Of a stretch of 64,000 nucleotides of DNA, positions 16,491-35,207 are shown piece by piece; within the stretch, counting starts at the first letter, position 1; each line of letters opens with the position of its first letter. Source of the stretch: an uncultured Bacilli bacterium. Its GTDB lineage: Bacteria > Bacillota_I > Bacilli_A > RF39 > UBA660. A program made the translations under genes and the position numbers. Location of the stretch: positions 68,761 through 132,760 of the forward strand of contig CAKPMY010000001.1 of NCBI GenBank assembly GCA_934168245.1. The letters are read 5' to 3'. The notes beneath the pieces are model-generated. The model was not told the origin of the DNA. It saw only the letters and a program-made list of their open reading frames with translations, and did not search any database.

Positions 16491-16492
<2 letters not shown>
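16459..16492. terminator. Bidirectional intrinsic terminator between convergent genes
   Basis: AACCAGTCCAA-CTCC-TTGAACTGGTT stem (11 bp, 1 mismatch), flanked by TTTTTATTTT on the plus side and a U-rich run on the minus side. Sits between the stops at 16459 (+) and 16491 (-). Confidence 0.55.
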
Positions 16493-19289
<2,797 letters not shown>

Positions 19290-21211: not shown

Positions 21212-21850
21212 TTATAAAGCCACTCTTAATTTTTCTAAAATCTTACCTTCTTTTCTAGAAACTTGTACTTGACTAATACCAAGTTCTCTACTTGCTTCAC
21301 TCTGAGTCATATCTTCATAATATCTAGCAATTATTAAATTCTTCTCTTCGACAGACAATCTACTAATCTCACGTTTTAAATCTAAAATTTCCGGACTAGT
21401 TTCCTTATCATATGAAGCAACAGAATTATAAAACTCTGGAAGTTCTTCATCCACACTATAATCTAAACTTCTAACATCCAAAGCCGCAACTCTTGCTTCT
21501 TCTATTTTCTCCTCATCTATTTCCAAAAATAAAGAAAGCTCCGTAGTAGTTGGTTCTCTTCCCAACCTTTGACTCATCTGTTCACTAGCCTTTTCAATAC
21601 TTTGATTCAATTTAACTAAATCACTAGATATTTTAACTAATCCTGCTTCTCTAACATATTTACGTACTTCTCCTAATACATAGTAATAAGCATATGTCGA
21701 AAACTTCGTATTTAAACTACTATCAAAATTATGATATGCATTAATTAATCCAATCATTCCTACCTGATACAAATCATCTCTTTCAAAATACTTTGTATAT
21801 CTCTGAATAATACCATATACTAATCCCTCATAATTTAATAGTTCTTCCAT
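21212..21850 (-). CDS. sigF: Sporulation sigma factor, SigF-like (sigma-70 family, short N-terminus), 212 aa
   Basis: Region 2 (YQVGMIGLINAYHNFD), region 3 and region 4 HTH (EASRELGISQVQVSRKEGKILEKLR). Sits in the spoIIAC position between a spoIIAA-like gene and spoVA genes. Confidence 0.65.
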   Translation of the reverse strand: MEELLNYEGLVYGIIQRYTKYFERDDLYQVGMIGLINAYHNFDSSLNTKFSTYAYYYVLGEVRKYVREAGLVKISSDLVKLNQSIEKASEQMSQRLGREPTTTELSLFLEIDEEKIEEARVAALDVRSLDYSVDEELPEFYNSVASYDKETSPEILDLKREISRLSVEEKNLIIARYYEDMTQSEASRELGISQVQVSRKEGKILEKLRVAL

Positions 21851-21860
21851 ACTCTCCTTT

Positions 21861-22193
21861 CTAAATACTAAAACACTTTAATGCCTCAAACTCATCCTTT
21901 ACATAAAATAATCTTGATGAATCTCTTATTCCCTTAAATACATCACTAATTCCACATAAAACTACTTTTCCACAACTTAAAAATATTTCAACTAATTTTC
22001 TTTGGAAATCCCTAAAAATATTTTCATCGGTCTGTCTTACATGATTAAAATCAAATATAAAAAAATGCATTCCCTGCTTATAAAGTAAATAATCTATTTC
22101 TTCATCTAGTTTCTTAAATGTCTTATTAGTTAAATCACCTTCTAACTTAATTACTGTAAATCCTTTAACTACTCCAACATCCATTTCTAACAT
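21861..22193 (-). CDS. STAS-domain anti-sigma-factor antagonist, SpoIIAA-like, 110 aa
   Basis: VIKLEGDL...VVLCGISDVFKGI STAS pattern. 10-nt gap to sigF. The canonical DSSG phosphoserine motif is not recognisable. Confidence 0.55.
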   Translation of the reverse strand: MLEMDVGVVKGFTVIKLEGDLTNKTFKKLDEEIDYLLYKQGMHFFIFDFNHVRQTDENIFRDFQRKLVEIFLSCGKVVLCGISDVFKGIRDSSRLFYVKDEFEALKCFSI

Positions 22194-22288: not shown

Positions 22289-22302
22289 AAAAAGAAGAAA
22301 AG

Positions 22303-23037
22303 TTAATACCTTTTCTCCCACTCAATCAACTTAGCATGTACCACAAACTTCTCTCTCGTATCATAACAAGTAGCCAAAGTAAGTATTTTATCACTTGGTA
22401 CAATTTCTAATTCATCATATTTAACTAAACTTCTCTTCTTAATTAAATCGATAAAATTTAAAAACTCCTCATTACTATCATAACCAGTATATAAATAATC
22501 ATTAGTATTCGTAATTCTATAAATACTAAATATTTTAAATATATAATTATTATAAGGAGTAGAAATATAAACTAACTTCTCACTACCATCTTTATTAATT
22601 AAATCTCGTAAACTTCCAAACATAGTTCCATCTTCTCTACCATGTCCATAAATAATATTATTACTAACTAAATCATCTATATCATTTCTATAATCTGTAT
22701 ATATCCATCCTGCATAATTAAAAGACTTATCATATGAATGAGTTAAATAGTAAGAATTATCTTTATGTTTAACAACTGGAAAATTAACAGAAGTATCATC
22801 TACTTTTATCCAAGCCACTACTTCATTATTAATTTTAGCAAGTTCTGTGAAATCAACAGAAAGAAAAGTACTAATTGGATTAATCTCTATCCTAGTAACT
22901 TCTTGAACTAACTTAATACTCTCTTTAGTCTTCTTATTATCTTCATTCCAATTAACAATATAAAAAAAAGAAAAGAGCATAGCGCCTAAAGAAGATATTA
23001 ATAAAACTATTGGTATTAACATTTTCTTCATATACAT
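22303..23037 (-). CDS. srtB: Class B sortase
   Basis: N-terminal TM, NSYYLTH, IIYGHG (His) and TLATCYD (TLxTC catalytic Cys), ~244 aa as for SrtB-type enzymes. Confidence 0.7.
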   Translation of the reverse strand: MYMKKMLIPIVLLISSLGAMLFSFFYIVNWNEDNKKTKESIKLVQEVTRIEINPISTFLSVDFTELAKINNEVVAWIKVDDTSVNFPVVKHKDNSYYLTHSYDKSFNYAGWIYTDYRNDIDDLVSNNIIYGHGREDGTMFGSLRDLINKDGSEKLVYISTPYNNYIFKIFSIYRITNTNDYLYTGYDSNEEFLNFIDLIKKRSLVKYDELEIVPSDKILTLATCYDTREKFVVHAKLIEWEKRY

Positions 23038-23045
23038 GCTCCTTT

Positions 23046-24251
23046 CTACAAAACATCTATATTATCATCTGTATTATTATCTATATTAGTATCATCCTTA
23101 GTCTTATCTTCAACTAAAGTATTCTGTATATAACCATCATTAGGAATATAAGAATTATTTAGACTTTCATTCGAAGTAGAAACAATAACCGGCTCTTCTG
23201 TAATGCCACTAACAGTATTAACATTAGCCTGACTCATACTTGGAGTCACATTCGCCGCATTAGCCTTACCTTGACTCACTTTCAAAGTTTCATTACTATC
23301 TACATTCAAAGTCTTATTCTCCAAATTACTATTAATCTGATTTATATCTAAAGCCTCATTATTAAAATTATTAACTATATTATTAGTATTAACACTTCTC
23401 TCTCTTCTTTTCTTTTCATACTTCTTTTTATCTCTAAGTACAAAGAATAATACTAACAATAATATTACAAAAACAAGTACTAAACTTAAATATAAAATCT
23501 TCTCATCTTTTCCTAACTTCTTCGTAACAGGTGTACTTTCTAAAACTTCAGGACTATATTCAACTCTAGTCCCACGTACTAGCAATCTATGTGTGTTTAT
23601 CGCATATGGTGTACAAGTAACTAGTGTTACATAATCTTCTCCTTCCTGAAGTTTTAAAGCCTCTATATCTGATGGTTCTACAACAAGTACTTGATCAACT
23701 TTATAAGCAAATACTTGATCTAAAATATAGACATAAAACATATCTCCATTTTGGAGTTGATTCAAATCAGTGAATAGTCTTGCTGAAGGCAATCCAGAAT
23801 GAGCCGATAACACTGCATGTGTTGTATCTCCTCCTACTGGAAAAGAACTACCTTCAACATGACCAACACCTTTTTGTAATACTTCATCACTTGTACCATG
23901 ATAGATAGGTATCTTAACATCTATCTTTGGTATTTGTAAATATCCCATCATTCCATTATCCCTAACATTTAAAATATTTAGGTATTCTTGAGACGTTGAT
24001 TGTTCTGGATTAGTAAAAGCATCAACAATATTAGAACCAGATATTCTACTATTATAAAGTCTAGCCTCATCAATCATTTCTTTATTCTTATTACTAGTAT
24101 TTGAAGATATATCACTAGAATAAGCTGTAATTACTTCAACTGCCTGATTAGAATTAATATAATTAATAACAACAGGATATAACATTATAGATAAACCTAT
24201 TAAAATACATATTGAAAATATAATAACAGGTATCTTTTTCTTTATATTCAA
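23046..24251 (-). CDS. srtC: Class C (pilus-polymerising) sortase with an unusual ~125-aa N/S/T-rich C-terminal cytoplasmic tail
   Basis: HAVLSAHSGL (His), TLVTCTPYAINTHRLLVRG (TLxTC plus Arg) and a C-terminal TM followed by a KKKYEKKRRER stop-transfer. The C-terminus then continues as a long low-complexity tail. Confidence 0.8.
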   Translation of the reverse strand: MNIKKKIPVIIFSICILIGLSIMLYPVVINYINSNQAVEVITAYSSDISSNTSNKNKEMIDEARLYNSRISGSNIVDAFTNPEQSTSQEYLNILNVRDNGMMGYLQIPKIDVKIPIYHGTSDEVLQKGVGHVEGSSFPVGGDTTHAVLSAHSGLPSARLFTDLNQLQNGDMFYVYILDQVFAYKVDQVLVVEPSDIEALKLQEGEDYVTLVTCTPYAINTHRLLVRGTRVEYSPEVLESTPVTKKLGKDEKILYLSLVLVFVILLLVLFFVLRDKKKYEKKRRERSVNTNNIVNNFNNEALDINQINSNLENKTLNVDSNETLKVSQGKANAANVTPSMSQANVNTVSGITEEPVIVSTSNESLNNSYIPNDGYIQNTLVEDKTKDDTNIDNNTDDNIDVL

Positions 24252-24252
24252 A

Positions 24253-25755
24253 TTATTCAGTTATTTCTTCTTTTTTATTACGATAAACAATAATAGCAAT
24301 AGCTGACGCTGCGATTACTAATAAACCAATGAAACTAAATAAAGAAGTACCCATACCACCAGTAAATGGTAATGTACCAGTTTCATATGCTGCTATATCA
24401 ACTCTATAATAACCAGTAACTGTACCTTCCGTAGCACCTGTTATTTTAACCTTTATAGGAACCGCATCTTTTGGTAATCCATATCCAGCAGCAGTAGAAG
24501 TTTGTTTTAAATAATATGTACCAGATTTAACACCAGCATAACTACCTCTACCATTAGTATCAGTAGTAATATCTCCTACTTTAGTACTTAATGCTGCATC
24601 AGAGTAAACCTCAAATTTAACATTAGATAACTTCTTAGAATTATCACTATTAGAATAGATAAATAATTCAATACCATATGTAAATGCTGATACATTAACT
24701 GCTGAAGTTGTAGTAGTAAGTGTACCATATGGATCATTTGCATATGTTAATACTGCACTATTTAAGTTACCTGCATCTCCTAATGTAGCACTACTATTAA
24801 GTTTAGCCTTATATTGAACTGTAACAGTAGTAGCATCAATATAACTAGTATTAAATACTATAGTAATCTTTTGTCCAGTAATTGTAGCCGTAGCAACAGT
24901 ATTACCAGAAGAGTTTTTAAATGTACCATTACTATTAGTTAAAGTAGTTGTTCCATACTTAATAGTCATTGTACTAAGTGCTGATAATGTAATACCATTT
25001 CCAACTGTATCAGTAATAGTATAAACAGTATTAGTTGCATTAGTAGGATATTGAGGAACAGTACCAACTAAAATATAAGTAAACTCTTGTCCAAAAGAAT
25101 AATCTCCTTCAAAATAACCTTCTGAACCAACATACTTAGTAAGTGAAGCATTACTAACTTTAGCAACTATAGTAGAATTGTTAATCTCCCAAGTAGTACC
25201 ATTTGCAACTGGAATAACATTTCCAACCATAACAGCATAAACATTAGTAGTAACACTAGGTATTACTAAATAAGCACCTGCCGCAACAGTACCAGTTGCT
25301 GTACTACCAGAAGTAGTTAAAGCCGTACTAGTAGTCGTATGATTCTTAACATATGTTGCATAAGCACTAACTAACTTATCTAATGTAGATTGAGTTCTAG
25401 TAGAACCAGATGTAATATCACCAGATGTCAAAGCATAATACTCATCTACTGTAAGATTTTTATAAGTACTACTAGAAGCAAGAAATGCCTTAAAACTAGT
25501 AGTAAATTCATAAGTCATTACATTAGAAGTAGCATTATAATAAACATCTAAAATCTTATATGCAACTAACCTATCAGCCGTCCCAACATTAGAAACAGTA
25601 ATAGTTCCTGTATTAGTTACTAATAAACTACTAGGATCGGTAGTACCTTTTTTACTACTATCAGTAGTAATTGTAACAGCATCTACATTTAAAAATATTC
25701 CAAATGTAAATATTGCAACCAATAACCCAATAATTTTCTTTTTCATTTTATACAT
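24253..25755 (-). CDS. LPXTG-type pilin subunit (sorting signal LPFTGG + TM + RNKKEE), paralogue 1, 500 aa
   Basis: Signal peptide, T/S/V-rich Ig-like sequence, E-box-like YYLKQTSTAAGYGLP and C-terminal TGTLPFTGGMGT...hydrophobic...YRNKKEE. Stop overlaps the srtC start. Confidence 0.7.
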   Translation of the reverse strand: MYKMKKKIIGLLVAIFTFGIFLNVDAVTITTDSSKKGTTDPSSLLVTNTGTITVSNVGTADRLVAYKILDVYYNATSNVMTYEFTTSFKAFLASSSTYKNLTVDEYYALTSGDITSGSTRTQSTLDKLVSAYATYVKNHTTTSTALTTSGSTATGTVAAGAYLVIPSVTTNVYAVMVGNVIPVANGTTWEINNSTIVAKVSNASLTKYVGSEGYFEGDYSFGQEFTYILVGTVPQYPTNATNTVYTITDTVGNGITLSALSTMTIKYGTTTLTNSNGTFKNSSGNTVATATITGQKITIVFNTSYIDATTVTVQYKAKLNSSATLGDAGNLNSAVLTYANDPYGTLTTTTSAVNVSAFTYGIELFIYSNSDNSKKLSNVKFEVYSDAALSTKVGDITTDTNGRGSYAGVKSGTYYLKQTSTAAGYGLPKDAVPIKVKITGATEGTVTGYYRVDIAAYETGTLPFTGGMGTSLFSFIGLLVIAASAIAIIVYRNKKEEITE

Positions 25756-25922
25756 CCTTTCTTTACTTTATATATAACAAATCATCCTAAAATATCACTC
25801 TTTACAAAGTTGAAGTATTTATAAAAAACTAATATTATAAAACAATTTTGTTACCCAAACTATTTAACCTACCTTATAATATATTTTAAACGTAAATGTA
25901 AAATTTTTCAATACAAACCACC

Positions 25923-25951
25923 TAAAAAAGACCTTCTTTTTAAGAAAGTCT
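25923..25951 (-). terminator. Terminator-like hairpin at the 3' end of pilin paralogue 2
   Basis: AGACCTTCTT-TTT-AAGAAAGTCT (10-bp stem, one mismatch) overlapping the stop codon, followed by a U6 run on the minus strand. Confidence 0.4.
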
Positions 25952-27436
25952 CTTATTCTTATTTTTCCCTCTATACAAACTAAATATCATAAAAGATGTA
26001 ATTATTACAACTAAACCTACCAAAGTATAAATAATTGTTCCAAGTCCTCCAGTAAATGGCAAAGTAGCAACCTTTATTGTTGGTATTTCTACTTTATAAT
26101 ATCCATCTATTGTTCCATCTACTGATCCATTTATTTTTACACTCATGCTTACTGTAGTTGCTAAACCATATCCTGTTGCTGTCTTAGTATTTTTTAAATA
26201 ATATGTACCAGCAGCCACACCTCTTAAAGTACCAACGCCATCACTACCTGTAGTTATAGTTCCAACTTTACGAGTTAGTCCTGAATCAGAATAAACATCA
26301 AACGTAACTCCAGATAACAATGTCGCCATATTATCTCTATCATAAACCAATAATTCAATACCATACGTATATGCTCCTACACTAACAGCCGTAGTCGTAG
26401 TTGTTCCTGTATAATATGGATCATTAGAATATGTCAAAGTCGCACTATTTAAGTTACCAAGCTCACCTAAAACAGCCCCAGTATTAAAGTTAGCCTTATA
26501 CTCAACTGTAATAGTACTATTAGTAATATAATTAGTATAAAAAGTAATTACTAAATTATTACCCGTAATACTAGCCGAACCAACAGTATTATCTGAAGAA
26601 TCTTTAAAAATACCATTATTATTAGTTAATGTAACACTTCCATCTCTAATACTAATATTATTAACTCCTGCAAAAGTTAATCCTGATCCAAGTGTATCTT
26701 TAATTGTATAAACAGTATTAGTAGCATTAGTAGGATATCTAGGAACAGTAGCAACTAAATAATAAGAAATATCATCCACAAGATAATAGTCTCTTTCAAT
26801 ATCTCCAATAGAACCAATTGACTTCGTAATAGAAGGTTCTGCTACTTTCGGTACAATAAAGGCATTACTCAAAAACCATTCACCAATATTATTAGGTTCA
26901 AATACAACATTCGCAACCATAACTGAATATATTTTTGCTGTAGCATTTGGTAATATCAAATAAGCCCCACTATATACGGGAGTAACAATATCAAGATATT
27001 CATCACTCACGATAGAATTAGTTTTTATATAAGTAGTATAAGCACTCATTAATTTATCTAACGTAGAATTTGTAACTGTAGAACCAGATGTAATATCACC
27101 AGATGTCAAATTAAAATAATCACCAACAGTTAAATTTTTATATGTAGAATTACTTGTTAAAAACTTCTTAAAATTACTAGTAAATTCATAAGTTATAACA
27201 TTACTAGTAGAATTATAAAAAGCATCTAATATCTTATACAAAGAAAAAGTATCATTACCAATATTAGTAGGATCTACATCTACACTTCCTCTAGAAGTTA
27301 TCAAATAACTATTCGTATCAACTGTACCTTTAGTATTAGAATCAACGGTAATATTAACTGCCTTTACATTGATAAACATACAAAAAACGACTAAAATAAT
27401 TACTCCAAATATCTTCTTCATACTACATCCTCTCAT
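25940..27436 (-). CDS. LPXTG-type pilin subunit (LPFTGG), paralogue 2 (most divergent), 498 aa
   Basis: Same architecture: signal peptide, conserved YKILDAFYNSTSNVITYEFT block, E-box YYLKNTKTATGYGL, ATLPFTGGLGT + TM + RGKNKNKR. Confidence 0.7.
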   Translation of the reverse strand: MRGCSMKKIFGVIILVVFCMFINVKAVNITVDSNTKGTVDTNSYLITSRGSVDVDPTNIGNDTFSLYKILDAFYNSTSNVITYEFTSNFKKFLTSNSTYKNLTVGDYFNLTSGDITSGSTVTNSTLDKLMSAYTTYIKTNSIVSDEYLDIVTPVYSGAYLILPNATAKIYSVMVANVVFEPNNIGEWFLSNAFIVPKVAEPSITKSIGSIGDIERDYYLVDDISYYLVATVPRYPTNATNTVYTIKDTLGSGLTFAGVNNISIRDGSVTLTNNNGIFKDSSDNTVGSASITGNNLVITFYTNYITNSTITVEYKANFNTGAVLGELGNLNSATLTYSNDPYYTGTTTTTAVSVGAYTYGIELLVYDRDNMATLLSGVTFDVYSDSGLTRKVGTITTGSDGVGTLRGVAAGTYYLKNTKTATGYGLATTVSMSVKINGSVDGTIDGYYKVEIPTIKVATLPFTGGLGTIIYTLVGLVVIITSFMIFSLYRGKNKNKRLS

Positions 27437-27472
27437 ACTATAATATCTATTACAATTTTACAAAGAAAAGCA

Positions 27473-27501
27473 TAAAAAAACAAGCCTTAACTTAGGCTTG
27501 T
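27473..27501 (-). terminator. Rho-independent terminator at the 3' end of pilin paralogue 3
   Basis: Perfect 8-bp stem ACAAGCCT / AGGCTTGT (loop TAACTT) overlapping the last codons, followed by U7 on the minus strand. Confidence 0.55.
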
Positions 27502-28991
27502 TCTTGCTCTTTTTTTCTATTATATAAAACGAATAGTAAAATTGCACTAACTACAGTAATTAAACCAATCATTGTATATAAAACTGTACCAATACTACCA
27601 GTAAATGGTAATGTTCCTGATTCAAACGCAGATACTTCTGCTATATAATAACCTTCAGTTTTACCTTCAGTAGAACCTTCGATTTTTACTTTAACAGGAA
27701 CTGCATCTCTTGGTAAATTATAACCAGGTGCAGTTGAAACTTGTTTTAAATAATAAGTACCTTCAGCAACACCAGGTAAAAGTGCTTTACCCTCAGAATC
27801 AGTAGTTACTTCACCAATTTTATTAGTTAATGATGAATCTGAATAAATTTCAAATTTAACACCAGATAATACTATACTATGATCTTTATCTGCATAAATT
27901 AATACTTCAATACCATAAGTAAATGCTGATGCATTAACTGCTGAAGTAGAATTAGTACCAGTTCCATATGGATCATTTGAATATGTCAATACAGCACTAT
28001 TTAAGTTTCCTGCTGAACCAACTGTAGCATTATTATTTAATTTTGCCTTATATTCAATTGTTACTGTAGTACTTAAAACATAATTAGTATCAAATACTAT
28101 AGTAAGTTTTTGTCCATTAACTGTAATAGTTGCTACTGTATTACCTGCAGCATTTTTAATTACACCATTAGAATTAGTTAATGTTGTATTACCATCTTTT
28201 ACAATTATAGTAGAAATACTTGATAATGTAATAGCATCACTAACTGTATCTACAATAGTATAAGTCTTATTAGTAGCATTAGTAGGATATTGAGGAACAG
28301 TACCAACTAAGAAGTATGAGAATTCTTCTCCAATTGAATAGTTACCATCAACATGTCCAATTGTACCAATTGACTTTGTAACTGAAGCAGTACTGATTTT
28401 TGCTTTTATTGTTACATCACTAATATTCCATTCATTACCATTAGCAACTGGAATAACATTTCCAACCATTACTGCATAAACACTAATTGTAGATTTAGGA
28501 ATAATTAAATAAGCACCTGCCTCAACAACAGCACCTGTTGCTCCTTCACTAGCAGTATAAGCCAAATCAGTTCCAGCAACTGCATGAGTTTTTACATAAG
28601 CAGCATATAAACTAACTAACTTATCTAATGTAGATTGAGTTCTAGTAGAACCAGATGTAATATCACCAGATGTTAAATTATAATATTGATCAACTGTAAG
28701 ATTTTTATAATCTGTAGTAGTAGCCAAGAATGCTTTAAAATCACTAGTAAACTCATAAGTAAATACATTAGTAGATGCATTATAGAATGTATCTAAAATC
28801 TTATAAGCAACTAAAGAATCAGTTGTTGGAGCATTAGTAATATTAATAGCACCTTGACTAGTTACTAATGCACTATTTGTATCAATAGTACCTTTTTTAC
28901 TTGTATCAGTCGTTATTGTTTCTGCATTAACATTTAGTACAAGTCCAAATGTAAATATAGCAACTAACAACCCAATAATTTTCTTATTCAT
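27492..28991 (-). CDS. LPXTG-type pilin subunit (LPFTGS), paralogue 3, 499 aa
   Basis: Near-identical signal peptide to paralogue 1 (KKIIGLLVAIFTFG), same conserved blocks, E-box YYLKQVSTAPGYNLP, SGTLPFTGSIGT + TM + NRKKEQ. Confidence 0.7.
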   Translation of the reverse strand: MNKKIIGLLVAIFTFGLVLNVNAETITTDTSKKGTIDTNSALVTSQGAINITNAPTTDSLVAYKILDTFYNASTNVFTYEFTSDFKAFLATTTDYKNLTVDQYYNLTSGDITSGSTRTQSTLDKLVSLYAAYVKTHAVAGTDLAYTASEGATGAVVEAGAYLIIPKSTISVYAVMVGNVIPVANGNEWNISDVTIKAKISTASVTKSIGTIGHVDGNYSIGEEFSYFLVGTVPQYPTNATNKTYTIVDTVSDAITLSSISTIIVKDGNTTLTNSNGVIKNAAGNTVATITVNGQKLTIVFDTNYVLSTTVTIEYKAKLNNNATVGSAGNLNSAVLTYSNDPYGTGTNSTSAVNASAFTYGIEVLIYADKDHSIVLSGVKFEIYSDSSLTNKIGEVTTDSEGKALLPGVAEGTYYLKQVSTAPGYNLPRDAVPVKVKIEGSTEGKTEGYYIAEVSAFESGTLPFTGSIGTVLYTMIGLITVVSAILLFVLYNRKKEQEQA

Positions 28992-29130
28992 AATATTCGT
29001 CCTTTCTTTTCTTTATATATAACAAACCCAATCCAAATATCATTAAACTATCTACGAGCTGCAGTTACTCATATTCACCTAAACAACATCTGAATAAAGA
29101 TTTTGCTACCTAAATTAATTAATTATTTTC

Positions 29131-29946
29131 TTATCCTTCACTAGAAGTATTTTGATTATCTTGATTCATATTCTGATTATTAATCTGATTATTGTCTTGA
29201 TTATCTACCTGATTAATAACCGAATTATCACTCTGAGTAGTAACTTGACTATCTATTTGATTTACATTCATACTACCCGCATCAGTCTTCTTATTATTCT
29301 TCTTCTTTTTGATAATAAGTACAATCGCCACAATAAATATAATTAAAGCAATTCCAAATATCGCAACATATAGATATATAGTATCAGCTGTATATGGAGG
29401 ATCTACTCCGCCATCTCCTGGATTAACATTCAAAGATTTAGCCTCAGTCTTAGCAAAAACACTTAAATCATACATATAAACATCTTGAATTTCGTTAAAA
29501 TTAGGTAAACTGACTAATAATGGTCCAGATGAATATTCATAATCCTCAGTCTTCTTACTATCAACTCTAATTAAATACAATCCCACTTTTAAATCTTTAA
29601 AAGTAAATTCTCCATTACTATCAGTCTTCGTACTAGCAATATAATTAATATTATTATCACTTATATACTTATTAAGTTTACTAGTATAATCATCCCATTC
29701 AAAACTCTCTAATGTATTAACATCTTCTGTATATCCTACAAACTCATCAACATAAGTATATTTAGCCAACTCACTCATATCAGCAATCTTGTATAAATAA
29801 ACATTAGTATCTGTAATATTAACATCACTGTAATTATACTTACCTATTATACTAGTCAATCTATTAACTTCAATTTCTGCATTTACATTAGTAATAGTAA
29901 AGAAGAATGCTACTATAAAAACAACTAATAATTTAATTTTTTTCAT
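29131..29946 (-). CDS. Small CnaB-like surface protein with C-terminal TM anchor and Q/N-rich cytoplasmic tail, 271 aa (candidate minor/basal pilus component)
   Basis: Signal peptide, TDSNGEFTFKDLKVGLYLIRVDSKK (CnaB/prealbumin-like motif) and a TM helix preceded by VNPGDGGVDPPYTADT (no canonical LPXTG). KKKKNNKK stop-transfer is followed by a ~50-aa Q/N-rich tail. Start abuts the stop of the upstream gene. Confidence 0.45.
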   Translation of the reverse strand: MKKIKLLVVFIVAFFFTITNVNAEIEVNRLTSIIGKYNYSDVNITDTNVYLYKIADMSELAKYTYVDEFVGYTEDVNTLESFEWDDYTSKLNKYISDNNINYIASTKTDSNGEFTFKDLKVGLYLIRVDSKKTEDYEYSSGPLLVSLPNFNEIQDVYMYDLSVFAKTEAKSLNVNPGDGGVDPPYTADTIYLYVAIFGIALIIFIVAIVLIIKKKKNNKKTDAGSMNVNQIDSQVTTQSDNSVINQVDNQDNNQINNQNMNQDNQNTSSEG

Positions 29947-31992
29947 CTACATACCCTCCATCTTTCTTCTCATGTATAATACATATCCACAAGATGCACA
30001 AACTATAACAATAAATCCACCTACTATATAAGGTATATTACCAACACCACCGGTATTAGGTAACATATCTATTTTATCGTTTACAAGATCAACTGTAACT
30101 ACACCTGTTGTATTCGTAATCGTTTGATTTTTAAATGTAATATTACCTGAAGTATCTACAACTACGGTATACGTATCTGGCAATAGTACATATCCTGTTT
30201 GAACTCTAGTTTGTTTTAAATAATATGTAGTACCAGGAATTAAATCAGTAAACTCTAATCCCTCTGCAACTTTAGAAGCATCACTCAAGTTAGAATTACT
30301 ATATAAACTAAATTTACCATCTGATAATACTGTTCCATCATCACTATCTGTCAAATTAACTTTTAATGCCACATTTGCAACTTTAAATGCCACTGAAACT
30401 TTATAATCTTGTGATGTATCTAAGTAATAATAATTATCTGCTAAAGCACCAGTAATTTCTACTGAATTTACATAATCAGCAACTATTTTATCTGTTGCGG
30501 TAAATGTTGCATTAAGAGTAACACTTGCTCCCGCCGCTATTGTACCAATTTTAACTATTTGATCACTAAGTAATGTATAAGATGTACTAGTTGTAAATGT
30601 TGCTCCTGTAAGATATTCTTGTACCATTACATCTTTAATCGGTATACTGGCTGTATTTGTAACTGTAATTTGGAATGGAACTACTTCTCCCTTTTTATAA
30701 CTTGCTTTTTTATTTGGTATTGTAATTGTAATCGTTGGAGAGAAATATCCAGAGAATAACATCCATTCACCATAAATAACTACATCTTCTTCAGGCATTT
30801 CAAATGTCTTACTCTTATACCAACCTAAGAATTTATAACCTGTTGCTACTGGATCATCCGCAACTGTTATTGTTTCTCCTGGTGCATAAGCCACTGTCGC
30901 TGGTAATAGACTATCAGCATTACTAGGCATAACTGAACCTTGGAACTGATAAGAAACATTATATTTAATTAATTCAAACTTACCAGTAATTGAAACATTC
31001 TTACTAGGCATCTGGAATATTCCATCAGTTAGACTAACATCTGTTGATGTCCAACCTAAGAACCTATATCCATTAATAACATCTCCGGCCTTTAATGAAT
31101 CAACAATTACATCATCCCCAGCCCCATAAGATTTAGGAGTTGGTGAAATAAATCCATCTGGAACATTACCAGATACAGAATACGTAACTGTATATTTTGT
31201 TTTTGCTGTAAAACTACCCGTAAATACTACATTGCTAGAAGGCATTGTAAACGAATTATTAGTAACTGTAACATTACTAGTAGACCACCCAGAGAAAGTA
31301 TAACCTGCTACTGTCGGATTAGCCTCAACACCAACTGTTGTACCAGCACTATATGAGTTAGTTGTAGGAACAGGTGCTCCATCAGGAACTGTACCTGTAT
31401 ATTTATAAGTTACTGTATATAAAGTAGCCTCTTCATCACCCATAAATACATGTACTGTATTTGATTTAAAAGAGAAATCATTTTCTCTAGCAAAAGCCGT
31501 ATTATAAAAATCTAGTCTTTTTCCATTTGGCAAATCAGGAGTAGTCGTAACAACACCTACAGTCAACTTACAACCTGCCTGTAAATTCTTTACTTTAAAC
31601 GAAACTGTCCTTGTTGCACTATCATATACCAATCCAGCACTATCTCCAACGACATAACCAGGACAACTAGTACCATCACTACGTTTAACTGCCCCTATCG
31701 TACCATCACTCGTTGTAACAAATTCTTTAAATGTTAATCCATCAGGTAACTTATCTTCAACATATATATAATCACTACTAACATTAGCAGTAACAGTATC
31801 ACTAGAAGAAACTGCTTTAGCATCCTTACCATCATAAATAACATCAATATAATAAGTTAAGTCGCTATTAGGTGCTACTCTGGCTCCAGATTCCAAAGGA
31901 ACTGCAAAAGATCTATTGATAATAACAATCAATAAAGCAACAAATAAAGACAAAGAAAGACCAATAATAATATTTCGTTTCTTGTTCTTCAT
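29947..31992 (-). CDS. LPNTG-anchored surface protein with three Listeria-Bacteroides (Flg_new) repeats and a C-terminal CnaB/E-box domain (candidate tip or ancillary pilin/adhesin), 681 aa
   Basis: Signal peptide. Repeats with AGYTFSGW, NGYRFLGW and TGYKFLGWY. E-box-like YYLKQTRVQTGY. MLPNTGGVGN + TM + RRK at the C-terminus. Confidence 0.65.
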   Translation of the reverse strand: MKNKKRNIIIGLSLSLFVALLIVIINRSFAVPLESGARVAPNSDLTYYIDVIYDGKDAKAVSSSDTVTANVSSDYIYVEDKLPDGLTFKEFVTTSDGTIGAVKRSDGTSCPGYVVGDSAGLVYDSATRTVSFKVKNLQAGCKLTVGVVTTTPDLPNGKRLDFYNTAFARENDFSFKSNTVHVFMGDEEATLYTVTYKYTGTVPDGAPVPTTNSYSAGTTVGVEANPTVAGYTFSGWSTSNVTVTNNSFTMPSSNVVFTGSFTAKTKYTVTYSVSGNVPDGFISPTPKSYGAGDDVIVDSLKAGDVINGYRFLGWTSTDVSLTDGIFQMPSKNVSITGKFELIKYNVSYQFQGSVMPSNADSLLPATVAYAPGETITVADDPVATGYKFLGWYKSKTFEMPEEDVVIYGEWMLFSGYFSPTITITIPNKKASYKKGEVVPFQITVTNTASIPIKDVMVQEYLTGATFTTSTSYTLLSDQIVKIGTIAAGASVTLNATFTATDKIVADYVNSVEITGALADNYYYLDTSQDYKVSVAFKVANVALKVNLTDSDDGTVLSDGKFSLYSNSNLSDASKVAEGLEFTDLIPGTTYYLKQTRVQTGYVLLPDTYTVVVDTSGNITFKNQTITNTTGVVTVDLVNDKIDMLPNTGGVGNIPYIVGGFIVIVCASCGYVLYMRRKMEGM

Positions 31993-32114
31993 ATTGCATC
32001 TCCTTCCTTTATACTATAAACACCTACTATACAAATTAATTATAGCAAAGTAACATTTCAAATTCAAGATAGCAATTATAAAAACCATCTAATTAGTAAT
32101 AAAAGTATATAAAC

Positions 32115-35100
32115 CTATGCAAGAATAAGAACATAAGGATTAGTAGAGGTACCATCACCATAATCAACCTTCATACCAGGTTTAATTGATACAACTGGCC
32201 TAAAATCATTAGAAAAACTAGTCAAACAATACCGAACAAAGGTATTCATATTTACATTTGGACCGTATACTGCAATTCGTGAATTATCAGTTGTTGTACT
32301 TAGAGGTGACATAGTCCAAAAATTTAAAGTACCTAAATATGAAAACGAATAGTATCTACCGGCTAATAAAACCTCATCATAAGTAAGTAATCCAACTGGA
32401 TATTTTAAACCATTTGTTGTAGTAAACTTATCATAGCTGTTATTGCACTTAAGTAACGACGATGCACCATTAAAAAATAAATCATAACCAAAGAAACGTA
32501 CATCGCTAGAGGCAGCAATTTTTCCAATAATTGTATTTTCACTTACCAAAGATGTAGTTATAATTTCACGATTATTACAAAATGTTGCATCTTCCAAATA
32601 ATCTGTATAACTTGTCATATTATTCTTATACCATGTTTCGATCGTAGTTTTCGCATTAGAATCATTAATATTATTAAAAACCTTGGCTTCTTTAAAGGCT
32701 TGTAAATTATAAGCATTAATATCATAATAGGAAATAGTCTCATTTTTATAGTAAATTAAATATTTAACGGAAGCACACTTTGTATTTTCACTAAAACAAG
32801 TGTAGTTATAGCCCTTTGTCAATGTTTCAAATTCATTATATAAATTAGTCACTGACAGACTAATCGTATCTTGCAAAACATATTGTGTACCATCCCATTG
32901 TTCCCAGTTACCAAAAATAATTTTCTTATTTGCAGCCTGTGTTTTTAAATCCGAAGCCAATGAGCCATCATTAAGAGAAACGTATGTCAGATTACCTTCA
33001 TTATAAGAAATAACATAATATATATTAGAACAAGAAACATCAGAAGAATCTGGACACACATAATAATCCGCCAGAGTTTCATATTTTTCTGCCCATACTA
33101 TTTTTTGACCAATGTAACTTGCCACCTTATAATTTCCACTACTATAAGTTGCAGAAGTAGAAGCATTCATATATATTGGAACATAATAAGCCTCAGTAGA
33201 AGTCCCTCCAACTATATAAACAGGTTCACTGCAACTACTAGAACCATCTAAACAAGTATAATATTTTTTATATGAAGTACTCCAAGTATCCTGAGTAGCA
33301 TTATTAAGAACATAAGTACCATCAAAATTGTTACGTTGTAATGAAGAATAACTAGAAGTAAAATAGTATTTTCCAGTACCCATTGTTTGAGTCTTACTTA
33401 TATTAATAGTACTAGTAGTTAATCCCAATACATCATACCATTTAGGCATAGTATATGTTTTTACTTTTTCAAGACTTCCATACATATAACCAACACTAGC
33501 AATAGAACCAGGATCAGTATTAAAAGCACCTTTTCCTATACTACAAGCAGTATTAGTACACTGATTATTACTATTAGGAAGACCATTATATAATATCTTT
33601 ACACCACCAGTATCGGTAGTTCTAACTATTTTCCAACAAAATCCAGCAAACAACAAGTTATTATCATCAATAGAACCATGATAATAATGAATTGGATAAT
33701 TATCATTTGCAGTTGAAGAATAAGTATAAACTCCTTTATTTGTAGTCGTAGTACTAGTAAGATCTAAATTAGTATCCAAAGTAGCCTTACCTGCCACAAT
33801 ATCATATAAAGTAGCAGCCTCATAAATAGTTCCATCCACAGTTTTATTCATAGAAGCCTTAGCCCAAGTTGCTTTCAAAGTAACCGCATAAGGTGGCATA
33901 ACAAAATTAGTACCCTTACGTTCAACATTAGTATCATCTATTTGCCAGCCCTTAAACTCATAACCAGCACACACTGGAACAGTACTAGAAATATCAACTA
34001 CACTAAATGGATTATGATAAATAGTATATGGCAAATGATTTATTGTACAATCAGAAGGAGCATTTCCATCATAAACAACAGGATAGGCATTAGCAAGAGC
34101 CGGAGTGTCAGTACTAATAATGGTCTCAGAAACATCACCAATCTTATAATTGATTGCTACCTTTCTAAAAAGTGGATATACACCAACTGCACCTTCCGAA
34201 TACTTATCTTTTAATTTTAAATCAAAACTCATTGTAACAGGAAATCCTGTAGCAAGTCGATTATCTGAACCTTCATTACCAAAAAACCATATCATTCTTG
34301 CACCAATAATATTGCCTGAAGTACCAAATGTTACATTTGGTTTGATATTATCAATAGAAAAAACATCAGTATTTATCAAAGTATCAATACTAAATAAATC
34401 ATAATCTACATATCGCACCATATAATCTATGTTTGAAATAATTCTATAAAAAGAAGAAAGATCAGTTCCAACATATTGAACATCACTCATTTCTTTTAAA
34501 ATATCACTTTTGTTTCCACCAACATTATACTGAACAGCAAAAAAGTTTTTTATTTCTGGATAGTTTTTTCTGATATTATTATACGTTTCCTTTTCTTTTC
34601 CCATATCTCGAGCCGGATCACCATCAGTAATTAATACAACCCAAATATCATTGTCACCATAATCAGTAGAAGTTTCAAGGAGTTCATTTAAAGCATCTAA
34701 TGCCGAATAGTAACTAAGCCCAGTACTCCCATCTAAATTACCATATGATGTTGAGTTAAGTTCAGTAAGATCAGTACCAAAATCACTTGCTATCTCGGCT
34801 ACTGAATTAAATTTTATAACTGCTAAAGAGTTATCACTATTTTTTGAAAGAAAACTTCGTCCAAATGCACGAATACGGTTTTTCATTGTAGTAATATCTA
34901 TAGTATCATCCACTAACAATACTAAATCTATAGGTTTAATATCTTTTGCCATAGCAACACTATCAAGTTTAAAAGTTACTCGTACTCTGCCCTTAGAAAC
35001 CCATTCTGCATTTACATCAATATTCCAACTTCCAGGATCATCGTCTTCAGATGAAAGTTTTGTTGATTGATATGTGATGTTTTTAACTTCCACATCTGCC

Positions 35101-35207
35101 GCAAATGAATTAGTAAGTGTAAATACAAAAACAAAAATTAAAATTAAAGATAATAAAAATAATAAAGACTTCTTTTTAGTAAAAAAACTAAAGACTTTCT
35201 TTAACAT
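32115..35207 (-). CDS. Giant secreted vWA-domain protein with a Flg_new repeat and C-rich C-terminal region; no sortase signal; 1030 aa
   Basis: Signal peptide. vWA-like DLVLLVDDTIDIT...VVLITDGDP. CAGYEFKGWQ repeat. Long Y/T/S/C-rich C-terminal 550 aa ending ...KVDYGDGTSTNPYVLILA with no TM or LPXTG. Confidence 0.55.
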   Translation of the reverse strand: MLKKVFSFFTKKKSLLFLLSLILIFVFVFTLTNSFAADVEVKNITYQSTKLSSEDDDPGSWNIDVNAEWVSKGRVRVTFKLDSVAMAKDIKPIDLVLLVDDTIDITTMKNRIRAFGRSFLSKNSDNSLAVIKFNSVAEIASDFGTDLTELNSTSYGNLDGSTGLSYYSALDALNELLETSTDYGDNDIWVVLITDGDPARDMGKEKETYNNIRKNYPEIKNFFAVQYNVGGNKSDILKEMSDVQYVGTDLSSFYRIISNIDYMVRYVDYDLFSIDTLINTDVFSIDNIKPNVTFGTSGNIIGARMIWFFGNEGSDNRLATGFPVTMSFDLKLKDKYSEGAVGVYPLFRKVAINYKIGDVSETIISTDTPALANAYPVVYDGNAPSDCTINHLPYTIYHNPFSVVDISSTVPVCAGYEFKGWQIDDTNVERKGTNFVMPPYAVTLKATWAKASMNKTVDGTIYEAATLYDIVAGKATLDTNLDLTSTTTTNKGVYTYSSTANDNYPIHYYHGSIDDNNLLFAGFCWKIVRTTDTGGVKILYNGLPNSNNQCTNTACSIGKGAFNTDPGSIASVGYMYGSLEKVKTYTMPKWYDVLGLTTSTINISKTQTMGTGKYYFTSSYSSLQRNNFDGTYVLNNATQDTWSTSYKKYYTCLDGSSSCSEPVYIVGGTSTEAYYVPIYMNASTSATYSSGNYKVASYIGQKIVWAEKYETLADYYVCPDSSDVSCSNIYYVISYNEGNLTYVSLNDGSLASDLKTQAANKKIIFGNWEQWDGTQYVLQDTISLSVTNLYNEFETLTKGYNYTCFSENTKCASVKYLIYYKNETISYYDINAYNLQAFKEAKVFNNINDSNAKTTIETWYKNNMTSYTDYLEDATFCNNREIITTSLVSENTIIGKIAASSDVRFFGYDLFFNGASSLLKCNNSYDKFTTTNGLKYPVGLLTYDEVLLAGRYYSFSYLGTLNFWTMSPLSTTTDNSRIAVYGPNVNMNTFVRYCLTSFSNDFRPVVSIKPGMKVDYGDGTSTNPYVLILA

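Follow-up and report, generated by a model that had tools for sequence, protein, structure and literature searches.

Organization of the pilus locus

We analysed a 64,000-nucleotide (nt) stretch of contig CAKPMY010000001.1 (hereafter the window, meaning this whole stretch) from an uncultured low-GC (29% GC), spore-forming gut member of Bacilli, in which a sortase-pilus locus carries three tandem genes for shaft-type pilins, here called P1, P2 and P3. The locus occupies 22303..35207 on the minus strand, with all genes in one direction. In order of transcription it encodes a VWA-domain protein, a 681-amino-acid (aa) protein with an LPNTG signal, a 271-aa minor pilin-like protein, P3, P2, P1, a class C sortase (srtC) and a class B sortase (srtB). 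A terminator follows 3' of srtB, and beyond it lie a STAS-domain gene, a sigF-like gene and spoVA genes. The pilins and the sortase gene that adjoins them are:

27492..28991, minus strand: P3, first shaft-type pilin paralogue, 499 aa, LPFTG (open reading frame (ORF), domain matches, AlphaFold2 (AF2) model and Foldseek)
25940..27436, minus strand: P2, middle shaft-type pilin paralogue, 498 aa, LPFTG; likely real start 27421
24253..25755, minus strand: P1, third shaft-type pilin paralogue, 500 aa, LPFTG; likely real start 25746
23046..24251, minus strand: srtC, class C (pilus-polymerising) sortase (NF033745, 283.5 bits, cut-off 160)

An earlier note on this DNA had placed three tandem paralogous pilin genes here, and all three are indeed intact minus-strand ORFs with pilin domains at its coordinates. 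Translation of P1 and P2 probably begins at their second ATG (25746 and 27421), to judge by the spacing from the ribosome-binding site (RBS), a stop codon there in orthologues, and the gene calls of other assemblies; public gene calls use that start, as in P0147, the P1 protein beginning at the second ATG. The same note had P1 translationally fused to srtC. Instead, P1 ends in a TAA stop codon that is followed by a single base and then the TTG start of srtC, a start supported by the class C sortase model NF033745, which aligns from residue 14. The arrangement fits translational coupling, not fusion.

Three shaft-type pilins with a common sorting signal

All three proteins begin with MKK, a hydrophobic stretch and NV(D/K/N)A, as in a signal peptide, and end in LPFTG, a membrane anchor and a basic tail. 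Each matches PF16569, the Gram-positive backbone-pilin domain (48-52 bits), PF17802, the SpaA/CnaB domain (42-43 bits), and the isopeptide-domain model TIGR04226 (55-56 bits). PF00746 and TIGR01167 also match P1 and P3, with P2 scoring slightly below cut-off, and the SpaH/EbpB major-pilin model NF033902 gives just 59.7 bits against a cut-off of 95. The AF2 model of P3 (predicted local distance difference test, pLDDT, 78) contains three Ig-like domains, and its top Foldseek matches are shaft pilins, namely Clostridium perfringens CppA (5xcc, E = 3e-26), Streptococcus pyogenes T6 (E = 8e-24) and Streptococcus sanguinis PilA (E = 1.5e-21), along with S. sanguinis PilB and SSA1632 and with BcpA. 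The best sequence matches in the PDB are likewise CppA, T6 and the S. sanguinis pilins (E = 5.5e-23 for the last). Domains, fold, sorting signal and a class C sortase starting one base past the P1 stop codon all agree with membership among the shaft pilins.

The linker that joins the N domain to the middle domain contains an invariant lysine (K198 in P3), followed 8 residues later by an invariant K206. K198 aligns with a lysine of the S. sanguinis pilins, stands in the context I(V/K)(A/P)K(V/I), and is our candidate for the acceptor lysine of polymerisation. YPTN at residues 235-238 was also considered, as a degenerate pilin motif, and rejected, the AF2 model placing it inside the middle domain. 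Because the signal peptide, the conserved linker lysine and LPFTG are common to P1, P2 and P3, the adjoining class C sortase could presumably polymerise any of the three.

P2 of one strain of the same species (L042, 4434..5906) carries LPFAG for LPFTG and a divergent, shorter C-terminal tail; this is either a real disabled sorting signal or the result of errors near the end of a low-coverage contig.

The trio is old and each copy is under purifying selection

The sequences used for comparison are all metagenome assemblies. The nearest named records are two sister species, 'Mycoplasma sp. CAG:877' (L001, with L037 as a second scaffold) and the metagenome-assembled genome HGM10852 (L002). Conspecific with the window are L042, L046, L047 and L048-L050 (the last three at 96-98%), and L041 is 99.1% identical over 16 kb. 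In three further sister-species assemblies, L043, L044 (a 1.19-Mb scaffold) and L045, one pilin gene stands in place of three.

In the window, P1 and P3 are the closest pair, with 64% protein and 74% DNA identity, followed by P1/P2 (53% and 66%) and P2/P3 (49% and 64%); synonymous divergence (dS) between paralogues is 0.50-0.83. The order P3-P2-P1-srtC-srtB recurs in L001, L002, L041 and L048-L050, and each copy is nearest to its own orthologue in L001 and L002 (P3 87%, P1 80-81%, P2 55-56%), with 181 sites of the window/L001 quartet supporting orthology. Farther relatives have two copies (a P2-like gene, then a P3-like gene) or one. Here, we show that the triplication is old and that each copy is under purifying selection, with ratios of nonsynonymous to synonymous divergence (dN/dS) of 0.17 for P3, 0.25 for P1 and 0.41-0.48 for P2. 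Two suggestions of the earlier note are therefore abandoned, since trios shared with sister species and purifying selection leave no room for a recent duplication or for a decaying or silent cassette: the paralogues are well diverged, and every copy is full length with its own RBS, signal peptide and sorting signal. A search of the 64-kb window for further pilin fragments returned none, bar the homologous C-terminal domain of the 681-aa protein.

A pilin N-terminal orphan fragment was found in CAG:877 only. This is a 134-aa ORF (L037, 9989..10393) that encodes a signal peptide and an initial portion of a pilin N-domain (55% identity to P1) and ends just past LTSG..STLDKLVS, right after the region equivalent to the 63-nt tract described below.

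The positional orthologues of P2 in L001 (2892..4349) and L002 (8349..9818) have only 55-56% protein identity to it despite flanking sigF/spoIIAA genes at 95-97% DNA identity, and synonymous divergence is 0.36-0.76 over the whole pilus locus against 0.10-0.20 in the flanks. Because the locus diverges far more than its flanks, this suggests either that selection has preserved old alleles or that transfer between lineages replaced the locus.

Identical tracts and exchange between P1 and P3

The segments in which P1 and P3 agree exactly, and the P1 segment found switched in another strain, are:

25366..25428, minus strand: 63-nt exact tract, P1 copy, encoding TSGDITSGSTRTQSTLDKLVS (exact-match comparison)
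28611..28673, minus strand: 63-nt exact tract, P3 copy (exact-match comparison)
25037..25071, minus strand: 35-nt exact tract, P1 copy, encoding LVGTVPQYPTNA; P3 partner 28276..28310 (exact-match comparison)
25205..25230, minus strand: 26-nt exact tract, P1 copy; P3 partner 28444..28469; adjoins the 5' edge of the L046 patch
25125..25204, minus strand: P1 segment replaced by P3 sequence in L046; donor equivalent 28364..28443 (diagnostic sites)

Both longer tracts had been reported in the earlier note and do exist, but its P1 coordinates are shifted 5-10 nt from the true tracts, and the positions it quoted match at only 21 of 63 nt for the longer tract and 9 of 35 nt for the shorter. Its statement that P2 diverges within the 63-nt tract holds, just the first 29-33 nt being common to P2. 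The 63-nt run is longer than in any of 2000 codon-column shuffles (maximum 60), and a run of 21 identical codons has p = 0.002 by permutation with amino-acid identity held fixed; the 35-nt run falls at about the 95-99th percentile of the codon-column shuffles.

Beyond the tracts, sites at which the window paralogues share one state and the L001 paralogues another outnumber the control pattern (32 versus 12) and cluster at alignment nt 465-767 and 916-1173. Furthermore, dS between P1 and P3 is lower within the genome (0.50) than across genomes (0.61-0.71), and codon identity at conserved residues is 0.74 versus 0.66-0.70. The exchange signal within the window alone appears modest but consistent. 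Exchange involving P2 was not found, as P2 polymorphisms agree with the states of P1 or P3 about as often as the background predicts and are unclustered.

Direct examples come from other assemblies. L046 (sample ERZ27237438) belongs to the window's species, with flanking genes 95-97% identical, and its P1 is 97-98% identical to that of the window save for one segment of 80-110 nt that has switched to P3 sequence. The patch comprises 19 consecutive P3-type diagnostic sites, and P3-type states occupy 26 of 32 sites in alignment columns 545-640 against 14 of 351 elsewhere (Fisher p = 1e-24). Sister-species P1 orthologues keep P1-type states there, so the transfer ran from P3 into P1. The 5' edge of the patch adjoins the 26-nt identical tract and the 3' edge has just 5 shared bases, and such short sharing in a k141 contig rules out a k-mer chimera for L046. 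The patch encodes NGNEWNISDVTIKAKISTASVTKSIGT, the linker with the invariant Lys198 and Lys206, and is the one clear P3-into-P1 patch among about 8 conspecific alleles.

In L043 (ERR11570795), L044 (ERZ28575184) and L045 (SRR29943871), a single pilin gene replaces the trio and no P2 is present at those loci. This gene is a P3'::P1' hybrid with one clean switch across 290-293 diagnostic sites, at alignment nt 1073-1080 in L043, 717-737 in L044 and 1242-1276 in L045. In the window's own species, a 2.1-kb scaffold (L047, ERZ28614138) is a P3::P1 hybrid with its crossover inside the 63-nt tract. A survey of 35 database proteins at 72 diagnostic residues gave 15 P1-type (one patched), 16 P3-type and 4 P3::P1 hybrids with four different breakpoints, and 0 P1::P3. 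This exclusive polarity is what deletion between direct repeats predicts. The proposal that gene conversion is ongoing between the tandem copies is thus upheld, for the most part by other genomes with the L046 patch and the P3::P1 hybrids, and also by the concerted sites and the lower within-genome dS.

Expression signals

The window holds four elements that could set the expression of the three copies:

27476..27505, minus strand: terminator-like hairpin overlapping the P3 stop codon, 12-bp stem and T-run (dG -18.5, z -4.2)
25926..25954, minus strand: weaker terminator-like hairpin overlapping the P2 stop codon, then a U-run (dG -12.6, z -3.2)
25883..25911, minus strand: promoter-like TTGAAA-17-TAAAAT ahead of P1-srtC-srtB, hexamers and spacing kept in L001-L003
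29017..29110, minus strand: ~95-nt stem-loop in the P3 leader, its 3' arm being the segment shared with the P1 leader (dG -27.2, z -2.9)

The hairpins agree with the view that P3 and P2 each end in their own terminator overlapping the stop codon, strong for P3 and weaker for P2, and L001 and L002 carry a different hairpin with a T-run at the P3-end position. The conservation of the P1 and P3 leaders is also confirmed, in the form of a 27-nt segment, TTTGTTATATATAAAG(A/T)AAAGAAAGGA, common to P3 (29026..29000) and P1 (25781..25755) with one mismatch. P2 lies 55 nt past P3, and the 184-nt spacer ahead of P1 holds the promoter-like site and the 3' arm of the leader element. It is plausible, given the terminators and the promoter-like site before P1, that expression levels of the three copies differ. 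Specifically, P3, with its structured leader and strong terminator, may be made in excess; P2, with its weaker terminator, might depend on read-through; and P1, with a promoter-like site of its own, might form a separate unit coupled to srtC and srtB.

The P3 leader stem-loop is conserved before P3-type genes in 8 species, its 36 pairs being kept mostly via one-sided changes, with 1 compensatory pair; besides the window, it stands ahead of such genes in L001, L002, L004-L008 and L028. It is not a known RNA family, since Rfam gave no match for the leader and only a tRNA over the whole window. The stem-loop shows stronger sequence conservation than the coding part of the pilin gene. It also resembles the stretch for the membrane anchor and KK tail at the 3' end of the minor-pilin gene that lies upstream in single-copy relatives, and so may be a relic brought along by the duplication.

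The P2-P1 spacer (25756..25939) is an insertion hot spot. In L001 (4350..10009) an insert of 5.6 kb brings in genes for a signal-peptidase-like protein (S24/S26), a DUF5305 protein and two further proteins that match no family, and in L048-L050 the spacer carries a DDE_Tnp_1 transposase (L048, 13162..14292).

Probable occasional recombination within the trio and the alternatives

Intact shaft-type genes under selection, an old trio, and a patch and hybrid genes in natural assemblies are what we observe. We consider it likely that these belong together, in that an old, selected shaft-pilin trio in a sortase-pilus locus occasionally recombines between P1 and P3 into patches or hybrids. P3 and P1 are direct repeats ~3.2 kb apart with patches of exact identity, and because of this they would recombine from time to time. 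Short non-reciprocal patches would be copied between the genes, as seen from P3 into P1 in L046 and as is probable for the 63-nt tract of the window, and unequal crossover would fuse P3 to P1 and delete P2, as seen in the hybrid genes of several assemblies. Both patches and deletions could be made by RecA-type recombination between the direct repeats, using the identical islands. The expected outcome would be mosaic shaft subunits and a copy number ranging from 3 to 1 among strains, with SrtC putatively polymerising all three subunits via Lys198.

Several points weigh against this explanation. The canonical YPKN pilin motif is not present in P1-P3, and their E-box-like motif, YYLK(Q/N)xxTAxGY, has Gln or Asn in place of the expected Glu (canonical YxLxETxAPxGY). 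Transcription, polymerisation and mixed fibres are predictions from the genes, and the material for comparison consists of metagenome assemblies throughout. The excess of concerted sites could partly come from lineage-specific codon usage or subunit co-adaptation. The 63-nt tract of the window shows the majority, apparently ancestral, state at every site, so both copies may simply be unchanged, and its first 29-36 nt are also identical in P2 and in the distant homologues L004 and L007. Among the hybrids, L045 comes from a k=31 assembly and has a breakpoint overlapping a shared tract of 29 nt, and L047 is 100% identical to the window on both sides of the 63-nt exact repeat.

Of the rival explanations, the one that survives best assigns the subunits divided roles, with P3 as the main shaft, P1, co-expressed with the sortases, as a basal or terminating subunit and P2 as a variable accessory, and treats P1/P3 exchange as incidental. 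We regard it as possible, if only tentatively. Such a division would parallel the S. sanguinis PilA/PilB/SSA1632 operon, whose three pilins, like the basal pilin EbpB, have the shaft-pilin fold. It also accommodates the expression signals that each gene has for itself, the retention of each paralogue as a distinct orthologous lineage, and the much faster evolution of P2 than of P1 and P3. However, LPFTG and the conserved lysine linker are identical in all three, single P3::P1 hybrids are apparently viable as the sole shaft-type gene, many relatives have one copy, and the 271-aa minor pilin and the class B sortase are already candidates for the base.

Rather unlikely, in our judgement, is that no exchange took place in this genome and that protein constraint and narrow codon usage (29% GC) have left the tracts unchanged since duplication. 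The objection that identical tracts reflect conservation at constrained positions stands for the 35-nt tract and fails for the 63-nt tract. The former is explained by conservation, because synonymous conservation is at its highest in that part of the gene (0.70-0.78 versus 0.64 overall) and the tract is largely common to P2 and to distant homologues. In the latter, synonymous conservation across the family is average (0.63 versus 0.64 overall, 44th percentile), so family-wide constraint does not account for it. Orthologues differ from the window there at 3-8 synonymous sites, the P1 and P3 paralogues of L001 differ from each other at ~5, and the longest identical runs in the P1/P3 pairs of L001 and L002 are just 8-9 codons. 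Within the species, 4 of 4 P1 alleles carry the 63-nt tract, and L042 and L048 deviate from it in P3, at 3-4 nt. In favour of simple retention, besides the ancestral-looking states and the partial sharing with P2, L004 and L007, zero orthology-diagnostic sites fall inside the 63-nt tract in any species; against it stand the permutation result and the exchange directly seen between the same two genes in L046. On balance we lean towards reading the 63-nt identity as a conversion footprint, with retained ancestral sequence as the alternative. The P3 tract variants of L042 were considered as unconverted ancestral states and rejected, being private derived changes, and are therefore uninformative on the direction of conversion.

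That the hybrids and the patch are metagenome-assembly chimeras between paralogues, leaving no recombination evidence beyond the window, strikes us as improbable. Hybrids are rare (4 versus ~650 members of the pure P3' and P1' clusters), and two of the joints are of the kind that such an error would make. The L045 breakpoint overlaps the longest exact tract common to the L002 paralogues, and L047, with full identity flanking a 63-nt repeat on so short a scaffold, may be a genuine deletion allele or may have been assembled as a chimera across the repeat. However, the L043 junction falls in a 6-nt interval between diagnostic sites and that of L044 in one of at most 20 nt, far below any assembly k-mer, and assembly collapse is unlikely for at least these two because the longest tract shared by the L002 paralogues is 29 nt. 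L044 is moreover a 1.19-Mb scaffold, and the L046 patch would need two switches within ~100 nt. All four hybrids are P3::P1 in polarity, and they are only 89-95% identical to each other, which indicates that they come from diverged lineages.

Finally, a recent tandem triplication that is still diverging has next to no credence, since the tandem arrangement, similar lengths and leader segment common to P1 and P3 are outweighed by the divergence of the copies (P1/P3 64% protein and 74% DNA, P2 ~50% and 64-66%, paralogue dS 0.50-0.83) and by same-order trios in sister species with each copy nearest to its own orthologue.

Comparison with known systems

CppA (5xcc, 6ixy), T6 (4p0d) and Bacillus cereus BcpA (3kpt) resemble P1-P3 in having three Ig-like (CnaB/reverse-IgG) domains with isopeptide-domain signatures, an LPXTG-type sorting signal and an adjoining class C sortase, and they give the best sequence and fold matches. 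They differ in that sequence identity is only 17-22% and that YPKN and the E-box Glu are lacking here; their loci have one shaft-type gene, whereas three stand in the present locus. By PDB titles, the closest structural parallel is the S. sanguinis operon of PilA (8wxd), PilB (8wg6, 8wgg) and SSA1632 (9uvr), in which one class C sortase accompanies three homologous pilins of similar size. The titles give those subunits distinct roles (shaft, basal or major), and the window locus adds a tip-like protein, a minor pilin and a class B sortase. We know of no inter-paralogue recombination in the S. sanguinis pilins.

For the recombination itself, parallels come from other surface proteins. In group A Streptococcus, the adjacent paralogues emm and enn fuse into a hybrid with the 5' part of the upstream gene and the 3' part of the downstream gene, the intervening DNA being lost, and such a fusion swept through a clinical lineage (PMC6321872); mosaics of M and M-like proteins have also been described (PMC9993116). 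The likeness lies in a single hybrid gene with a deletion, present in some lineages, although emm and enn encode coiled-coil M proteins, whereas here the genes encode pilins, hybrids are rare, several breakpoints are independent, and the evidence comes from metagenome assemblies. In the lpl cluster of Staphylococcus aureus, recombination between tandem paralogues alters copy number, and the unit that moves runs from the 3' part of one gene across the spacer into the 5' part of the gene that follows (PMC2568036). Its products are lipoproteins that are not polymerised, and our locus shows a short internal conversion patch as well.

In Neisseria, the pilE/pilS system varies a type IV pilin at high frequency by a dedicated mechanism, drawing on silent cassettes that are truncated and have no promoter. 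It shares with the present case the non-reciprocal transfer of short patches between pilin paralogues that alters a fibre subunit. In contrast, P1-P3 include no silent, truncated or promoterless donor copy; all copies are complete and apparently expressed, and exchange is seemingly rare. What the assemblies do contain, single hybrid genes without the intervening DNA and an internal non-reciprocal patch in L046, is typical of tandem-paralogue clusters. The recombination thus matches clusters such as emm-enn and lpl and is without the defining features of cassette-based antigenic variation.

With regard to expression, a sortase-pilus operon of Streptococcus gallolyticus, Pil1, depends on its leader region and a terminator (PMC3894217), but no repeat-containing leader peptide was found in the present locus, and the resemblance is no more than a lead. 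Searches of the literature on sortase pili with duplicated shaft pilins or gene conversion turned up analogies and no direct precedent. While the mechanism is familiar, three exchangeable shaft subunits that swap the lysine-linker segment in the sortase pilus of a gut commensal were without precedent in these searches.

Implications

Among the major adhesins and antigens of Gram-positive bacteria are the sortase pili, for which descriptions usually give a single shaft subunit per locus. Here, a lineage keeps three shaft-type subunits with one sorting signal, and natural variants exchange sequence and collapse into hybrids. If fibres are mixed or alternating, this would offer a simple genetic route to vary the pilus surface of a commensal, and the natural chimeras would reveal which pilin segments are interchangeable, including the lysine linker putatively used for polymerisation.

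A bolder proposal, which we consider doubtful, is that the trio serves as a population-level shuffling system for the pilus shaft, with three co-polymerisable pilins kept in tandem. If that were so, the 63-nt and 26-nt islands would be both products and substrates of recombination, and conversion together with 3-to-1 collapse would make mosaic shaft antigens under host IgA or phage selection, with lysine-linker swaps among the mosaic changes. The fast-evolving P2 and the deep divergence of the locus would then be part of the same diversification. To our knowledge, no shuffling system of this kind has been described for the sortase-assembled pili of gut commensals.

In practical terms, repeats of 26-63 nt that the copies share exactly are apt to mislead short-read assembly, as well as any call of gene copy number from metagenomes.

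In the protein, the 63-nt tract corresponds to a conserved, low-pLDDT loop and the beginning of a helix. In P3, residues 109-120 (~28632..28667) form a strongly conserved GDITSGSTRTQS motif, predicted as a flexible loop (pLDDT below 50) before an N-domain helix, and a conserved yet disordered loop of this kind suggests a functional site, such as a contact with a sortase or a partner.

Other genes of the locus and its surroundings

The remaining genes of the locus are:

22303..23037, minus strand: srtB, class B sortase (TIGR03064, 160 bits); terminator 22319..22293
29131..29946, minus strand: 271-aa minor pilin-like protein with weak SpaA and pilin matches and a non-LPXTG motif
29947..31992, minus strand: 681-aa LPNTG surface protein with Flg_new, DUF11 and SpaA domains and an LPXTG anchor
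32115..35207, minus strand: first gene of the locus, 1030-aa VWA-domain protein that lacks a sorting signal (ORF and domain match)

The 681-aa LPNTG protein is a candidate tip pilin or adhesin. In the 271-aa protein, PPYTAD stands just ahead of the membrane anchor, with VPNTFD, PPNTID or VPNTYD in homologues. This protein could be a substrate of the class B sortase or the base pilin, and the two may form a dedicated substrate-enzyme pair that anchors the pilus base. The VWA protein is mobile in the locus, lying upstream in the window and downstream of srtB in L002 (13428..16454) and L043-L045; it is missing from the upstream position in L044, L045 and L048.

Past the locus, at 21212..22193 on the minus strand, a STAS-domain gene (SpoIIAA-like, 110 aa) is followed after 10 nt by the sigF-like sigma factor gene, and no spoIIAB anti-sigma kinase gene lies between the two, here or in any of the related loci examined. 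Farther along, 16491..19289 (minus strand) encodes a 932-aa clostripain-family (Peptidase_C11) protein with a zinc ribbon at its N terminus and a very long low-complexity stretch rich in Asn, ~20 of them in one uninterrupted run.

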